Shown here piece after piece: positions 8,001 to 18,081 of a stretch of DNA of 45,423 bases. The position numbers and the translations under genes were made by a program. The notes beneath the pieces are model-generated. The model searched no databases. It saw nothing but the letters and a program-made list of their open reading frames with translations, and had not been told where the DNA came from. The DNA is from a virus (lineage: Duplodnaviria > Heunggongvirae > Uroviricota > Caudoviricetes). Location of the stretch: IMG/VR virus record IMGVR_UViG_2563366980_000004. One strand, given 5' to 3'. How positions within the stretch are numbered: the first letter of the stretch is position 1; every line of letters begins with the position of its first letter.

Positions 8001-8025
8001 ATGAAAAGCCACCTTCGGGTGGCTA
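8001..8025 (-). terminator. Intrinsic terminator downstream of cI
   Basis: GCCACC-UUCG-GGUGGC tetraloop hairpin followed on the minus strand by TTTTCATT, about 20 nt after the cI stop. Confidence 0.5.
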
Positions 8026-8044: not shown

Positions 8045-8737
8045 TTAATTGTGTCGCTTAAGGGTTTGTGACTGGCTGATTAAGACCTTTCCAAAGACCA
8101 TAAACCGGTGTTCATTTTCGCTGGTAATTCCCCATTCACGGTAAATCTGGTTATCAGAAATCACCAGTAGTTTGTCAGGTATCATTTGCAGTCGTTTGAC
8201 ATAAATTTTATCATCAAAACCAAATACATAGATACCATCTCCATCAAACTGATTGATACTGACATCAACGAAGATGAGATCTCCTGGCTCAATGGTTGGA
8301 CACATACTGTCCCCACGAACGTTGATAACTTTAATGTGATTGGCTGGCCGTCCGCCAAACATCGATACAGCATTATCAGTTCTGTATTCAATGGCATGAA
8401 TCACATCAATGACATCACCGCCCTGGATAAGGCCATTTCCCGCACTGGCACTGACATCCAGCATTTCAATACGGAATACATCCTTCACCTGCGCAACATC
8501 CTCACTAATACTGTTTTTACATACAGTATTACTTTTGAAGTCTGAGGTAAAGAGATCAGCAATATCAACACCTAAGCTCCTGGCAATATTACTCAGGGCT
8601 TGTTCAGTGAATTGTTTCTGCTTACCTGTTTCCAGGCGTGAGATATTCGCCGCATCCACTCCTATTGCTTCAGCGAGATCGGCGATTTTCATGTTCTTCG
8701 CCTGGCGAAGTTGTCTGACTCGGTTTCCTATGTTCAT
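8045..8737 (-). CDS. cI: CI-type prophage repressor (HTH_XRE + S24 LexA-like peptidase domain)
   Basis: 230 aa; N-terminal HTH (LRQAKNMKIADLAEAIGVDAANISRLETGK) and C-terminal S24 signature (RGDSMCPTIEPGDLIFVD...YVKRL); divergent from the cro-like gene. Confidence 0.9.
   Translation of the reverse strand: MNIGNRVRQLRQAKNMKIADLAEAIGVDAANISRLETGKQKQFTEQALSNIARSLGVDIADLFTSDFKSNTVCKNSISEDVAQVKDVFRIEMLDVSASAGNGLIQGGDVIDVIHAIEYRTDNAVSMFGGRPANHIKVINVRGDSMCPTIEPGDLIFVDVSINQFDGDGIYVFGFDDKIYVKRLQMIPDKLLVISDNQIYREWGITSENEHRFMVFGKVLISQSQTLKRHN
8509..8528. promoter_or_regulatory. Consensus-like SOS (LexA) box inside the cI coding sequence
   Basis: TACTGTTTTTACATACAGTA matches CTGT-N8-ACAG with TA flanks; in the HTH-peptidase linker region of cI. 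Confidence 0.35.
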
Positions 8738-8834
8738 GCGTTTATTACATTTCTTTATTGCGCGTTAAGCAAATCAACTTGCGCAAAATATTTGCGTGAA
8801 ATAATATGCTCATCACGCAATATGTGGAGGTCAT
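8738..8834. promoter_or_regulatory. OR/pRM-pR divergent promoter-operator region between cI and cro
   Basis: 97-bp AT-rich spacer containing TTGCGCGTTAAGCAA (TTGC-N7-GCAA) and the palindrome CGCAAAATATTTGCG; GGAGG RBS before the cro ATG. Confidence 0.6.
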
Positions 8835-9095
8835 ATGCAATCACCATTACGGAATGTGCGTAAGGCGCACGGATTTACTTTGCAGCATGTTGCTGCTGGC
8901 GTTCAGGTCAATCCAGCGACGCTGAGTCGTATTGAAAGACTGGAACAAATTCCATCTATCGATCTTGCAGAACGTCTGGCCAATTTTTTTAAGGGTGAAA
9001 TCAGCGAAATGCAGATTCTTTATCCGGCACGTTTTCAATCTAGCCAAAACCAGAATGGGTTTAAACCACAGGAACAGGAGGTAAGCCGTGGGTAA
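8835..9095 (+). CDS. cro: Cro-like HTH_XRE transcriptional regulator
   Basis: 86 aa; HTH (GFTLQHVAAGVQVNPATLSRIER); first gene of the rightward operon. Confidence 0.8.
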   Translation: MQSPLRNVRKAHGFTLQHVAAGVQVNPATLSRIERLEQIPSIDLAERLANFFKGEISEMQILYPARFQSSQNQNGFKPQEQEVSRG

Positions 9096-9639
9096 TCATC
9101 ACTGGAAAGTGGAAAAACAGCCTGAGTGGTACGTGAAAGCTGTCAGAAAAACTATCGCGGCGTTGCCGGGGGGTTACGCTGAAGCTGCTGAGTGGCTGGA
9201 TGTAACAGAGAACGCTTTATTCAACCGCCTTCGTGCAGATGGCGATCAGATTTTCCCGCTGGGATGGGCAATGATTTTACAGCGTGCTGCTGGCACTCAC
9301 TACATTGCGGATGCTGTCGCACAGTCTGCTGGTGGGGTGTTTGTATCGCTTCCTGAAATTGAGGAAGTAGAGAACGCAGATATAAACCAGCGCCTGCTGG
9401 AAGTCATCGAACAGATCGGGAGTTACTCAAAGCAGATTCGTTCGGCAATCGAAGATGGGGTAGTGGAGCCACACGAGCAGACAGCAATTAATGATGAATT
9501 GTATCTGTCAATTTCGAAGCTCCAGGAGCATGCGGCACTGGTCTACAAAATTTTCTGCGCTCCAGAAAAGAGTGACGCCCGCGAGTGTGCAGCTCCGGGC
9601 GTCGTGGCGTTTTGTGTCTGTGGAGAAACTAACGCATGA
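9088..9639 (+). CDS. CII-like / YdaT-like early regulatory protein
   Basis: 183 aa; GTG start with AGGAGG RBS; position after cro; weak resemblance to CII/YdaT-family proteins (functional call tentative). Confidence 0.6.
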   Translation: MGNHHWKVEKQPEWYVKAVRKTIAALPGGYAEAAEWLDVTENALFNRLRADGDQIFPLGWAMILQRAAGTHYIADAVAQSAGGVFVSLPEIEEVENADINQRLLEVIEQIGSYSKQIRSAIEDGVVEPHEQTAINDELYLSISKLQEHAALVYKIFCAPEKSDARECAAPGVVAFCVCGETNA

Positions 9640-10787
9640 ACAGTTTAACGGCAAATAACCGTTTGTCGCAACAGCTGGTGGTCAGTGTCGCTGCACACCT
9701 GTTGTTACGGCATGAATGCAGATTACCAAATCACCTGGCTGTAAGTAACCACAGAGAACTTTACCTGACTGTGGGGGGCGAGTTGTGCAGGAACTTAACC
9801 GCTGGTTTCGTGACGGAAGAGGACTTTATGTTCATGTTATTCGTTGGGAGCCAGAAACACAGCGCGTTATCTATCTTCGCAAAGACTACCCGCATGAGTG
9901 CTTTAGTCCTTTGTGGAAATTCAGGCGTGATTTTGTTGAGTGTGAAGGACCACCAGCACATTGATTCTGCCATTCCGGGACGTTACACTGTTCAGGCACC
10001 TTATAAAGCGGGTGCCGGGCGTGGAAACCCGGAATTCACCAAAGCGCACAACCGCGCTCTTGCGGTTTTTTTGTGTCATGAGCAGCATTACGCCCAAATT
10101 ATGGTGGGGCGTGCAGGGCCAACTTCGGTTGGGCCGGGTTCTTTGGTGACCGGTATTTCCACCCCTGTACGTCTCACCACCAATAAGGTCGTGGAAAGCC
10201 TTGGTGGTGAGTTATTAAAAATCACCAAAGAGGCTGCCATCATGGCTACGATCCCAACCCTCACTCAACCTGAAATTGCCATCGTTGATGGTCAGGCTGT
10301 TACTTCATCCCTGGCTGTTGCCAACTTCTTCTCCAAACGTCATGACGATGTACTGAAAAAGATCCGCACGCTTGAATGTTCCGCATCATTCACTGCCCGC
10401 AATTTTTCGGTGAGTGATTACACCGATTGCACAGGCCGCAAACTACCTTGCTATCAAATAACCCGCGACGGCTTTGCGTTTCTTGCTATGGGTTTCACGG
10501 GTAAACGTGCTGCCCAGTTCAAAGAGGCATACATCAATGCCTTTAACCAGATGGAGAAACAGCTTTCAAAGCCCGCTGTACCGAGCGACGTTGCACATAA
10601 CGCCAGCGTTCTCTGTTCCTACATTTCATCAATTCATCAGGTCTGGCTGCAGCAGCTTTATCCTATGTTGGCAAAAGCCGAATCTCCGCTGGCTGTTAGC
10701 TTATATGACTATATTAATGATGCTTCGGCGCTGGCCTGCCTCATAAATTTGTCGCTGAACCCTTCAGAGGTAAGGGGGCGCAAATGA
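9636..10787 (+). CDS. Rha-family phage regulatory protein (Rha domain from ATG 10242; status of the upstream 200 codons uncertain)
   Basis: C-terminal 182 aa (MATIPTLTQPEIAIVDGQAVTSSLAVANFFSKRHDDVLKKIR...) matches the Rha domain, with an AAGAGG RBS before 10242; the same frame is stop-free back to an ATGA overlap with the upstream gene but has odd composition and an internal terminator-like hairpin. Confidence 0.5.
   Translation: MNSLTANNRLSQQLVVSVAAHLLLRHECRLPNHLAVSNHRELYLTVGGELCRNLTAGFVTEEDFMFMLFVGSQKHSALSIFAKTTRMSALVLCGNSGVILLSVKDHQHIDSAIPGRYTVQAPYKAGAGRGNPEFTKAHNRALAVFLCHEQHYAQIMVGRAGPTSVGPGSLVTGISTPVRLTTNKVVESLGGELLKITKEAAIMATIPTLTQPEIAIVDGQAVTSSLAVANFFSKRHDDVLKKIRTLECSASFTARNFSVSDYTDCTGRKLPCYQITRDGFAFLAMGFTGKRAAQFKEAYINAFNQMEKQLSKPAVPSDVAHNASVLCSYISSIHQVWLQQLYPMLAKAESPLAVSLYDYINDASALACLINLSLNPSEVRGRK
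10050..10072 (+). terminator. Intrinsic terminator-like hairpin plus T-run (tR1-like)
   Basis: ACCGC-GCTCTT-GCGGT followed by TTTTTTT. Confidence 0.45.
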
Positions 10788-12314: not shown

Positions 12315-12967
12315 TGAGTAATAAATATTGCCAGGCGCTGGTGGAGCTGCGGAACAAACCAGCCCATGAACTGAAGGAAGTGGGCGATCAGTGGCGCACG
12401 CCGGACAACATTTTCTGGGGAATTAACACCCTGTTTGGCCCGTTTGTTCTGGATCTGTTTACTGATGGTGATAACGCCAAATGTGCCGCTTATTACACTG
12501 CGGAAGACAACGCGCTGGCGCATGACTGGTCAGAACGTCTTGCGGAGCTTAAAGGTGCTGCCTTTGGTAATCCCCCGTACAGCCGCGCGAGTCAGCATGA
12601 GGGGCAATACATCACCGGCATGCGTTACATCATGAAACATGCCAGTGCTATGCGTGATAAAGGCGGGCGCTATGTTTTCCTGATCAAAGCTGCCACCAGC
12701 GAAGTTTGGTGGCCGGAAGATGCAGACCATATTGCTTTTATTCGCGGGCGTATTGGTTTTGAACTGCCAGCCTGGTTTATCCCGAAGGACGAGAAGCAGG
12801 TGCCGACAGGCGCTTTCTTCGCTGGTGCTATTGCTGTTTTCGACAAGACCTGGAAGGGACCGGCAATCAGCTACATCGGGCGCGATGAACTTGAGGCATG
12901 TGGTGAGGCCTTTCTGGCGCAGGTTCGCCAGCAGGCGGAAAAACTGGTCAGGGAGATGGCGGCATGA
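12314..12967 (+). CDS. Phage N6-adenine DNA methyltransferase (Dam-like)
   Basis: NPPY catalytic motif (FGNPPYS); start at MSNKYC with TAATG overlap. Confidence 0.85.
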   Translation: MSNKYCQALVELRNKPAHELKEVGDQWRTPDNIFWGINTLFGPFVLDLFTDGDNAKCAAYYTAEDNALAHDWSERLAELKGAAFGNPPYSRASQHEGQYITGMRYIMKHASAMRDKGGRYVFLIKAATSEVWWPEDADHIAFIRGRIGFELPAWFIPKDEKQVPTGAFFAGAIAVFDKTWKGPAISYIGRDELEACGEAFLAQVRQQAEKLVREMAA

Positions 12968-13290
12968 CGACATTAACTCAATGCCAGCAGCAGGTGCTGG
13001 ATATGCTGATTTCTTACCAGAAAGAACGTGGCTTCCCGCCAACCAATCAGGAGGTGGCAACCATGCTGGGATACCGTTCAGTGAATGCAGCGGTGGAGCA
13101 TCTTCGCGCACTGGAGAAAAAAGGCGTCATCACGATAAAGCGTGGCGTGGCCCGGGGGATAACGCTTCATACCGCGGTGAAGGACGACGACAGCGAGGCG
13201 GTCGGGATTATCCGCTCACTGCTTGCCGGTGAGGAAAACGCAAGGCTGCGTGCAACCCACTGGTTACATGAGAGAGGCCTGAAAGTATGA
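12964..13290 (+). CDS. LexA N-terminal DNA-binding domain protein (no S24 peptidase domain)
   Basis: 108 aa; TQCQQQVLDMLISYQKERGFPPTNQEVATMLGYRSVNAAVEHLRALEKKGVI parallels the LexA winged-helix domain; no catalytic Ser/Lys domain follows. Confidence 0.7.
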   Translation: MTTLTQCQQQVLDMLISYQKERGFPPTNQEVATMLGYRSVNAAVEHLRALEKKGVITIKRGVARGITLHTAVKDDDSEAVGIIRSLLAGEENARLRATHWLHERGLKV

Positions 13291-16878: not shown

Positions 16879-17028
16879 TGGCGGTTTCCTGCTGTGAAAA
16901 TGGGCGGCTGGTGGGTGTTGGTAGCACCTGCCAGCCATTCGCTCATGCTTACTGGTCACAAGCGAACCACGGCCCACTGCTTTAGCGCAAAAGCAGAGTG
17001 AGCCTACCAGAGTTACGCTTACTGATCC

Positions 17029-18081
17029 ATGAAAAATACTGTAAGAATAAACAGTGTTGATTTAATCAACGCTGATTGCCTGCATTTTATTCAGTCCCTG
17101 CCTGATGATTCCATTGACCTGATTGTTACCGATCCGCCGTACTTCAAGGTGAAACCCAACGGCTGGGACAATCAGTGGAAAGGGGACGAAGATTACCTTA
17201 AGTGGCTGGACCACTGTCTGGCCCAGTTCTGGCGGGTGTTAAAACCTGCCGGAAGCCTTTACCTGTTCTGTGGGCATCGTCTGGCATCTGATATTGAGGT
17301 CATGATGCGTGAACGTTTCAACGTGCTTAACCATATCATCTGGGCGAAGCCGTCCGGACGTTGGAATGGGTGTAATAAAGAAAGTCTGCGCGCATATTTT
17401 CCTGCCACAGAGCGCGTTCTGTTTGCTGAACATTACCAGGGGCCATATCGCGGCAAAAGTGACGGCTATGCGGCAAAAGAAAGGGAACTCAAACAGCACA
17501 TAATGGCACCGCTGATATCGTATTTCAGGGATGCTCGTGCCGAACTGGGTATAACGGCAAAACAAATTGCCGAAGCCACAGGTAAGAAAAATATGGTTTC
17601 CCACTGGTTTGGTGCCAGTCAGTGGCAGTTGCCGAATGAGGCTGACTATCGGAAGTTACAGGCACTGTTTTCCCGTATAGCGGCAGAGAAGTTTCAGGAA
17701 CAACAACTGGAACAACCACACCACCAGCTGGTGGCATCTTATGATTCACTGAATCGCAAATATTCTGAATTGCTGGATGAGTTTAAATCTCTCCGGCGCT
17801 ATTTCTCCGTATCAGTCTCCGTGCCTTATACCGATGTCTGGATGCATAAACCCGTTCAGTTCTACCCGGGTAAACATCCGTGTGAGAAACCGGCGGATAT
17901 GCTCAGGCAAATAATCAATGCCAGTAGTCGACCTGGTGATCTGGTTGCTGATTTTTTTATGGGATCCGGTTCCACAATAAAAGCAGCAATGGCGCTGGGG
18001 CGTCGGGCCTTAGGTGTTGAGCTTGAGTCAGAGCGGTTTAACCAGACAGTGAAAGAGATAAACGAGCTGGTGGGGAAATAA
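17029..18081 (+). CDS. DNA methyltransferase (N6-adenine/N4-cytosine class, DPPY motif)
   Basis: 350 aa; IVTDPPYF catalytic motif near the N-terminus and an AdoMet-binding-like FFMGSGST motif near the C-terminus; no adjacent restriction endonuclease. Confidence 0.85.

Follow-up and report, generated by a model that had tools for sequence, protein, structure and literature searches.

Why should a binding site for LexA, the repressor of the host SOS response, lie inside the coding sequence of a phage immunity repressor? The question is raised by a 45,423-nucleotide stretch of DNA from a virus of the Caudoviricetes (IMG/VR record IMGVR_UViG_2563366980_000004), which at its full length is called the window below and which carries a cI-type repressor gene on its minus strand. 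The original prediction, made from the sequence alone, had seen a LexA box within this gene and a LexA-like protein encoded elsewhere in the prophage, and had joined the two in an unusual link between SOS control and immunity. The comparison of homologous genes presented here indicates that the box is an operator kept by selection on the DNA, and that it is accompanied by an internal Shine-Dalgarno (SD) sequence and start codon from which the C-terminal domain of the repressor may be made alone.

8045..8737, minus strand: cI-type repressor gene, product of 230 amino acids (open reading frame list and Pfam; annotated cI in PhiR63_1, mEp460 and SfII)
8509..8528, no strand assigned: LexA (SOS) box TACTGTTTTTACATACAGTA, heterology index 3.13, in the disordered linker of cI

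The 20-mer TACTGTTTTTACATACAGTA named by the original prediction is indeed present at 8509..8528, within the cI open reading frame (ORF). On the coding strand it reads TACTGTATGTAAAAACAGTA, occupies nucleotides 210-229 of the gene and encodes N-T-V-C-K-N-S-I at codons 70-77. Its quality was scored with a heterology-index (HI) matrix trained on 28 E. coli SOS boxes, whose own sites score 2.1-11.9. The cI box scores 3.13, better than the best site of any of 300 shuffled versions of the window, which score no lower than 6.55 (median 12.2). The site has the make-up of a gammaproteobacterial LexA operator, a 20-bp imperfect palindrome TACTG(TA)5CAGTA with invariant CTG-N10-CAG and a low HI. The scan for further CTGT-N8-ACAG patterns that had been suggested as a check returned three matches in the window against 0.57 expected, two of them (8509 and 17037) of LexA quality. 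A box of this kind within cI is far beyond chance, and it is predicted to be a very tight LexA operator. The version found in SfII and Citrobacter, TACTGTATATAAAAACAGTA, is identical to what we take to be the E. coli umuDC operator.

Conservation of the box was followed through 25 distinct homologous sequences, which span over 12 genera of Enterobacterales and reach as low as 50% protein identity (Escherichia, Shigella, Salmonella, Citrobacter, Klebsiella, Kluyvera, Pseudescherichia, Buttiauxella, Trabulsiella, Pantoea, Mixta, Rosenbergiella, Proteus and Serratia, plus a Cronobacter phage). Eight aligned cI genes show TACTGT-N8-(A/C)CAGT invariant amid an otherwise barely alignable linker. CTGT and CAG are unchanged in all 25 distinct sequences while the six bases on either side vary, and position 15 of the box is A in 22 sequences and C in three. 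The HI of the homologous boxes runs from 2.1 to 6.1, and many are nearer the consensus than that of the window (TACTGTATATAA[A/T]AACAGTA). A scan of one genome per species for cI homologues gave 24 loci; every homologue there with at least 54% protein identity has the site at gene nucleotides 210-229 in the same codon register. These homologues cover the genera just listed, apart from Escherichia, Salmonella and Cronobacter. The copies met in a scan of viral contigs were all 99-100% identical and are uninformative on this point. The repressor of the Cronobacter phage, at 50% identity and with a different helix-turn-helix (HTH) domain, has the same box and C-terminal domain.

The residues encoded by the box vary while its DNA stays constant. 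Residue 73 is C, Y, H or F, residue 74 is K, I, N, E or L, and residue 75 is N, Y, D, H, T or S. In every sequence, nonetheless, codon 71 ends in CT and codon 75 in C, whatever residue 75 may be, and a T71A variant still keeps CTGT (GCT GTA). Ser76 is encoded by AGT in 24 of the 25 sequences and by AGC in the degenerate L025, although AGT makes up only 16% of the serine codons in the rest of these genes. The ACAG to CCAG variants break the palindrome with no compensating change and are normal LexA-site variants, as in many E. coli SOS boxes, which favours binding by a protein and makes an RNA hairpin unlikely. No LexA-like site was found in the genes of seven related repressors at 35-50% identity (Klebsiella ST101-KPC2phi6.1, BTP1, HK022, a Mannheimia phage, an Stx2d phage, HK639 and Omnitron). 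The original prediction was to be given up if the site proved unconserved while synonymous positions varied freely; the opposite was found, with arms invariant across more than 12 genera and a linker that varies. Judged from this comparison, the box is a LexA operator kept by selection at the DNA level beyond the coding constraint.

A second conserved element, which the original prediction had not noticed, follows the box on the coding strand.

8499..8503, minus strand: SD-like GAGGA, 10 nt upstream of an internal GTG; duplex with the 3' end of 16S rRNA of −6.3 kcal/mol
8045..8488, minus strand: nested in-frame ORF of 147 amino acids (cI residues 84-230), beginning at GTG 8488..8486, which is Val84

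The product of the nested ORF would consist of a 15-residue tail with the Ala-Gly cleavage site (codons 8438..8443, product residues 16-17) and, behind it, the S24 domain. Between the box and the Ala-Gly site, an SD with an in-frame GTG or ATG is found in 26 of 26 box-bearing genes and in three of 11 relatives that have no good box (Fisher p = 4e-6, not corrected for phylogeny). The duplex of the SD with the 16S 3' end ranges from −5.4 to −11.9 kcal/mol in all 26, at normal spacing, and the distance from box to start is 20-35 nt, or 56 nt in Klebsiella. The start codon itself turns over among codons 84, 87-89 and 96. Its commonest form is the Val or Met of the motif D-V-(F/Y)-R-V at codons 87-88; where the usual codon is GTA, GTT or CTT, another start is present, at codon 84 in the window and the E. 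coli/Citrobacter clade, at 96 in Klebsiella and at 89 in Proteus. The linker protein sequence 3' of the box is not conserved, despite the kept SD and start. When the amino-acid sequence of each lineage was held fixed and synonymous codons were redrawn, an SD with start arose with a probability of 0.05-0.58 per lineage; 15 of 15 lineages have one, and the product of these values is 6e-11. In two Dryocola homologues the box is lost or degraded (HI 28 and 13.6), and the SD and start are missing too. The SD and start, tied to the box and on the sense strand, give the box a direction.

The internal start falls between the two halves of the repressor. cI consists of an N-terminal Cro/C1 HTH domain, a disordered linker and a C-terminal self-cleaving S24 domain, with Pfam matches to HTH_3/HTH_26 at residues 7-64 (HTH_3 at 7-62) and to Peptidase_S24 at residues 104-218. 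The AlphaFold2 model has confident helices at residues 3-62, a linker at 67-85 with a predicted local distance difference test score below 50, and the first C-terminal strand at 87-97, so that Val84 stands at the end of the low-confidence linker, directly before that strand. S98-A99-G100, S144 and K181 are invariant in 44 homologues, with cleavage at Ala99-Gly100. The HTH, the S24 domain, the Ser/Lys dyad and the hinge Ala-Gly of a self-cleaving CI/LexA-type repressor are all present. The solved structures nearest to the nested product by sequence are UmuD and UmuD' (E 1e-4, about 80 residues).

8523..8528, minus strand: candidate −10 hexamer TACTGT, the left arm of the LexA box (promoter geometry)
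8546..8551, minus strand: candidate −35 hexamer TTTACC, at codons Phe63-Thr64
8007..8024, minus strand: intrinsic terminator just past the cI stop, with a 7-bp stem, five G-C pairs and a T-run (terminator scan)

What would an operator and a start codon be doing within the linker? We put at about even the chance that the box is the operator of a nested SOS-inducible gene yielding the C-terminal domain of cI alone. In an undamaged lysogen, LexA would sit on the box and on an overlapping weak sense promoter, TTTACC-17-TACTGT. Heavy or prolonged damage would deplete LexA and let transcription begin within cI, at a start predicted on the minus strand at about 8517..8512. The leader, put at 25-40 nt here and at 20-56 nt for the arrangement in general, would hold the SD ahead of the in-frame GTG of Val84, giving the 147-residue S24/dimerisation domain alone, and the terminator at 8024..8007 would end the full-length and nested transcripts alike. 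The annotation of SfII places a rho-independent terminator at the same position.

The C-terminal domains of lambda-type repressors mediate dimerisation and cooperativity, and it is by analogy with them that an antirepressor role suggests itself. A half-repressor devoid of the DNA-binding domain would form mixed dimers with intact cI and lower operator occupancy. Such a short form would be a built-in antirepressor that adds a LexA input to the RecA-stimulated self-cleavage of cI, and it would probably poison the full-length repressor in heavy SOS. Alternatively, it could cleave intact cI in trans, as in UmuD dimers. The broader claim, that widespread enterobacterial repressors hold a gene within a gene whose LexA-controlled C-terminal domain acts as a self-encoded antirepressor or a trans-acting S24 protease, is more tentative and has in our estimate somewhat less than an even chance. 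ST64B, which has this type of cI, is SOS-inducible, and its response to ciprofloxacin is reported to precede that of the antirepressor-dependent Gifsy phages (PMC12626290), a timing that is compatible with the model and is no test of it. STnc1310 was dropped as support, as it is located about 330 nt downstream of cI and not within it (PMC7067206). Damage-induced genes "downstream of cI" were also dropped as support; they are most simply the PL operon.

The comparative evidence is strong for the operator and the internal start and circumstantial for the promoter and the activity of the product. TTTAC(C/A/T)-17 nt-TACTGT ranks first to fourth among the sigma-70 matches in most homologues, out of about 3300 candidates per gene in a position weight matrix scan, which favoured a sense promoter. 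Pantoea and Rosenbergiella have a perfect TATAAT in the spacer of the box, 17-18 nt from a −35 (10.8 bits). An exhaustive search for stand-alone homologues of the C-terminal domain gave almost only two-domain repressors of 215-260 amino acids, the exceptions being a few short proteins that are possibly fragments. An independent family consisting of this domain only is unsupported, because its homologues nearly all have two domains.

Several observations weigh against a nested gene. The score of the sense promoter is wholly set by the amino-acid sequence (p = 1.0 on synonymous resampling), its −35 match being the conserved Phe-Thr codons and its −10 match the box itself; resampling gave no selected promoter signal above expectation on the sense or the antisense strand. 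Three box-less relatives (Omnitron, the Mannheimia phage and the metagenomic variant P0019) have a good internal start, so that initiation may not strictly need the box and is possibly used on the full-length mRNA. The mRNA near the internal start is as structured as that of the rest of the gene (mean z = 0). cI retains its own cleavage site and catalytic dyad, and an additional antirepressor is therefore not obviously needed. Bulk RNA-seq of strain D23580 records a rise of at most about 2-fold in ST64B cI under peroxide shock (PMC7067206 supplement). Finally, the model infers that LexA occupies the box, that a promoter inside cI starts transcription at the predicted place, that the short protein is synthesised and that it antagonises cI; the choice of antagonist over protector is a guess by analogy.

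Part of this evidence would be accommodated by a reading that dispenses with the internal promoter, in which LexA would act on full-length cI transcription from PRM/PRE, either as a roadblock or as an occupancy sensor. Bound LexA would trim the cI mRNA, and its cleavage would yield more cI together with an internally initiated C-terminal domain, buffering transient SOS. Such a role agrees with a conserved box of predicted high affinity, with the want of an independently supported promoter on either strand, with an internal start in some box-less relatives that could serve the full-length mRNA, and with ST64B cI RNA that is not lower under inducing conditions and if anything slightly up. We nevertheless consider it unlikely, as it leaves unexplained why the SD and start are tied to the box (26 of 26 against three of 11) and are constantly placed 20-56 nt downstream of it, and as more repressor on the fall of LexA would run contrary to induction. 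Single dimeric repressors, moreover, are usually weak blocks to elongation.

The nested gene would be read away from the lytic genes; the opposite strand leads into them.

8738..8834: operator/promoter region between cI and the cro-like gene, with the repeated half-site TTGCGC/GCGCAA, unlike the LexA box
8835..9095, plus strand: cro-like HTH gene, product of 86 amino acids (Pfam HTH_3), divergent from cI
9088..9639: CII-like gene, 3' of the cro-like gene

The divergent cro-like gene and the repeated half-sites between it and cI fit the arrangement expected of an immunity repressor, the pair of genes being annotated cI/cro in mEp460, SfII and PhiR63_1, and the HI scan found no LexA-quality site in the operator/cro region 8738..9095. 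A promoter on the plus strand, repressed by LexA at the box, would after LexA cleavage give an RNA antisense to the 5' 200 nt of the cI mRNA, which would extend across the operators to cro and the lytic operon and so couple LexA directly to the switch. Sigma-70 matches do overlap the box on this strand, because the LexA half-site resembles both a −10 and a −35 hexamer, and in some homologues no other match in the gene scores as high as the antisense one (10.2 bits for TTCACT-17-TATCAT in Klebsiella, 8.9 bits in Pseudescherichia sp. and 10.1 bits in Pantoea). Their positions, however, are inconsistent among lineages and their scores no better than those of resampled codons, nothing downstream on that strand is conserved beyond the protein-coding constraint, and the conserved SD and start on the sense strand would go unexplained. 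An antisense promoter as the target of the box is on these grounds quite unlikely.

The original prediction had also pointed to a phage protein that looks like LexA without its peptidase domain, and this part of its description is borne out.

12964..13290, plus strand: LexA N-terminal-domain-only protein of 108 amino acids (PF01726 LexA_DNA_bind, E 2.9e-19), between the Dam methyltransferase and RusA genes

The protein aligns to residues 2-86 of E. coli LexA (PDB 1lea/1jhh, E about 1e-15). Its recognition helix reads RSvNAAvEHL against RSpNAAeEHL in LexA, keeping S39, N41, A42 and E45; Pfam gave no match to an S24 domain, and the protein ends at residue 108. At residues 84-90, L-L-A-G-E aligns with the V-A-A-G-E of the LexA cleavage-site strand, and about 20 residues then follow. 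The ORF was found in 61 phage records. In each of them it forms a nin-region module with a Dam-type methyltransferase on one side and RusA on the other, and its presence is independent of the type of cI.

Could this protein, an uncleavable mimic from the early operon, be the main ligand of the box and of the host SOS boxes? The recognition residues it keeps and the S24 domain it lacks would suit that role, and it resides together with the box in the window, in mEp460, SfII and 1720a-02 and in some Stx2a phages. The box is equally conserved where the ORF is absent (ST64B, 118970_sal3, the Klebsiella phages and Eeyore), and across genera only host LexA can be the common ligand. Conversely, SfV and cdtI have the ORF with an unrelated, box-less cI of the lambda type, and no site of LexA quality was found in the 7.5 kb from immunity to nin in these phages, where the best HI is 15.8 or worse. 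The isolated N-terminal domain of LexA also binds operators weakly, dimerisation residing in the domain that is missing here. The 108-residue protein is thus very unlikely to be the main ligand, and an obligatory pairing of box and ORF is rejected because each occurs without the other. The unusual SOS-immunity link first proposed is thus supported in part: its core, a box within cI, is strongly borne out by conservation, but the LexA-like partner is not required; by their distribution, the two are separate modules that meet in this prophage. With its recognition-helix residues kept, the protein may still bind the box in this phage, and it may re-occupy SOS boxes after the destruction of LexA.

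That the palindrome is no LexA site at all, and is instead an mRNA hairpin, a recombination joint of N- and C-terminal modules or a chance match under protein constraint, is hardly credible: although the box lies exactly at the domain boundary and the Cronobacter phage joins another HTH to the same box and C-terminal domain, its arms fit the LexA consensus around a spacer that stays A/T-rich, the CCAG changes leave the stem broken while the amino acids vary over constant DNA, the site is missing in the seven related repressors at 35-50% identity, and a 6-bp stem with an 8-nt loop would be marginal as RNA structure.

The repressor gene that carries the box is widespread. Its nucleotide identity is 97-99% in PhiR63_1, mEp460, SfII and several Stx2a phages, where it is annotated cI. 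With sb38 of Salmonella phage ST64B it shares 76%, and with Klebsiella prophage repressors about 69%. An allele of at least 90% nucleotide identity is found in 1040 of 5426 complete E. coli genomes, and the relatives of the protein make up 1147 protein clusters at E <=1e-20. The phages with this cI as immunity repressor include mEp460, the Shigella serotype-converting phage SfII, Salmonella ST64B and several Stx2a-converting phages, and many Klebsiella, Citrobacter and Pantoea prophages also have a cI of this type. ST64B is the carrier of sseK3 and of lysis genes required for colicin release.

Two database records of the gene call for comment. A 1407-bp contig of an Actinomadura rugatobispora assembly (L030, NZ_JBHSON010000232.1) holds a Klebsiella-type cI with the box and is almost certainly a contamination of that assembly. 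In the 77-kb record of Salmonella phage 118970_sal3 (L004, KU927493.2), the aligned cI differs from that of ST64B by three single-base indels, and its annotation covers only a fragment of 134 amino acids; the protein search found further intact-looking copies of cI at three places in this record, one of them at 65667..66359, and KU927493.2 may be a concatenation or a double prophage.

The window holds a second box of LexA quality, far from cI.

17037..17056, in the plus-strand ORF 17029..18081: LexA-quality box TACTGTAAGAATAAACAGTG, HI 6.14, better than 300 of 300 shuffles
16970..17003, plus strand: stem-loop-containing element GGCCCACTGCTTTAGCGCAAAAGCAGAGTGAGCC, about 30 nt upstream of the methyltransferase start

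This box forms codons 3-9 of a gene for a DNA methyltransferase of 350 amino acids, in the peptide M-K-N-T-V-R-I-N-S, between the Q region and the lysis genes. It is found at the same codons in phiP27, in Providencia phage PSTRCR_117lys and in the N15-like Klebsiella phage phiKO2 (HI 5.3-6.4), which suggests that the methyltransferase gene 17029..18081 is LexA-regulated. These three phages also conserve the element at 16970..17003, which has no T-run and is no obvious terminator.

The third CTGT-N8-ACAG match of the window, CTGTAAGTAACCACAG at 9739..9754 on the plus strand, was rejected as a LexA site because it falls outside the top 15 of the HI scan. The palindrome recurs in SfV and cdtI as GGCTGTAAGTAACCACAGAG (L121 at 3845; L122 at 4219), with an HI of 16. 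It stands at the start of the Rha/isrK region and may be part of the C4/isrK control region. Within ORF 9636..10787, two stretches of the plus strand, 9996..10072 and 10097..10184, match Rfam families above the gathering score, isrK with 67 bits and the P1/P7-type C4 antisense RNA with 83.6 bits, and these matches point to an antirepressor module, ImmI-like and controlled by antisense RNA, beside the cI-cro switch. The 383-residue "Rha protein" of PhiR63_1 is thus probably two things annotated as one, an RNA-controlled leader and a shorter Rha/Ant-type antirepressor gene starting at about 10240.

If the nested gene within cI is real, it would constitute a third SOS-coupled route of induction, beside repressor self-cleavage and separate LexA-controlled antirepressors. 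Induction would then integrate RecA-stimulated cleavage of cI with the depletion of LexA in roughly a fifth of the complete E. coli genomes. The LexA pool, and not the RecA filament alone, would then govern the induction threshold of these prophages, and likewise toxin release, gene transfer and lysis triggered by antibiotics. SOS-box tools restricted to promoter regions, like annotation pipelines, would misclassify these prophages. The locus would also be a clean natural case of an operator, a ribosome-binding site and a start codon selected within a coding sequence, at synonymous and linker positions.

A comparison with known systems shows how familiar parts may be combined here. A full-text literature search, whose coverage left out several older ST64B papers, found no description of a box in cI, of LexA bound to it, of SOS-dependent expression of its target or of a truncated cI isoform. 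A LexA operator and a translation start inside a repressor gene would combine the LexA-gated antirepressor with the self-cleaving CI, an arrangement that is apparently undescribed. LexA-controlled antirepressors, such as Tum of 186, GfoA/GfhA of the Gifsy phages, AntC of N15 and that of Fels-2, are an established route of induction (Lemire et al. 2011, PMC3121763; PMC7380047). As in that type, host LexA would gate induction through a small gene whose product inactivates the repressor by protein contact. Those antirepressors, however, are encoded by separate genes unrelated to the repressor and serve repressors that do not cleave themselves, whereas the candidate here is codons 84-230 of cI in the same frame and not a separate gene, and cI keeps both the Ala-Gly site and the Ser/Lys dyad.

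The predicted nested unit resembles umuD, with a tight operator followed by an S24-only protein of about 140 amino acids that has its cleavage site in a short N-terminal tail. It differs from umuDC in that a terminator takes the place of a downstream umuC or other polymerase gene, identity to UmuD is low and the unit is embedded in a larger ORF. With the lambda cI, P22 C2 and LexA family, the full-length repressor shares the two-domain architecture, the cleavage site, the catalytic dyad and the divergent cI-cro switch. We know of no LexA site described in the cI gene of lambda, and a LexA site inside the gene sets the box-bearing cI apart from the seven related repressors, HK022, HK639 and BTP1 among them.

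The two remaining comparisons concern truncated proteins. The 108-residue ORF resembles the N-terminal cleavage fragment of LexA (residues 1-84) in its winged helix, in its recognition residues and in ending near the cleavage position; unlike the fragment, it is encoded by a gene, has about 20 extra C-terminal residues and is without the new C-terminus of the fragment. Neher and co-workers are said to have found in 2003 that this new C-terminus marks the natural LexA fragment for degradation by ClpXP. The transposase of Tn5 and its inhibitor (Tnp/Inh), like other isoforms that lack the N-terminus and poison the full-length protein, offer a parallel in form to what is proposed for cI, namely a shorter in-frame product without the DNA-binding N-terminus, made from its own internal promoter and start and inhibiting through mixed oligomers. 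The Tn5 transposase promoter is itself reportedly sensitive to LexA. Inh belongs to another protein family and setting, and while the short form of Tn5 restrains an activity, that of cI would release a repression.

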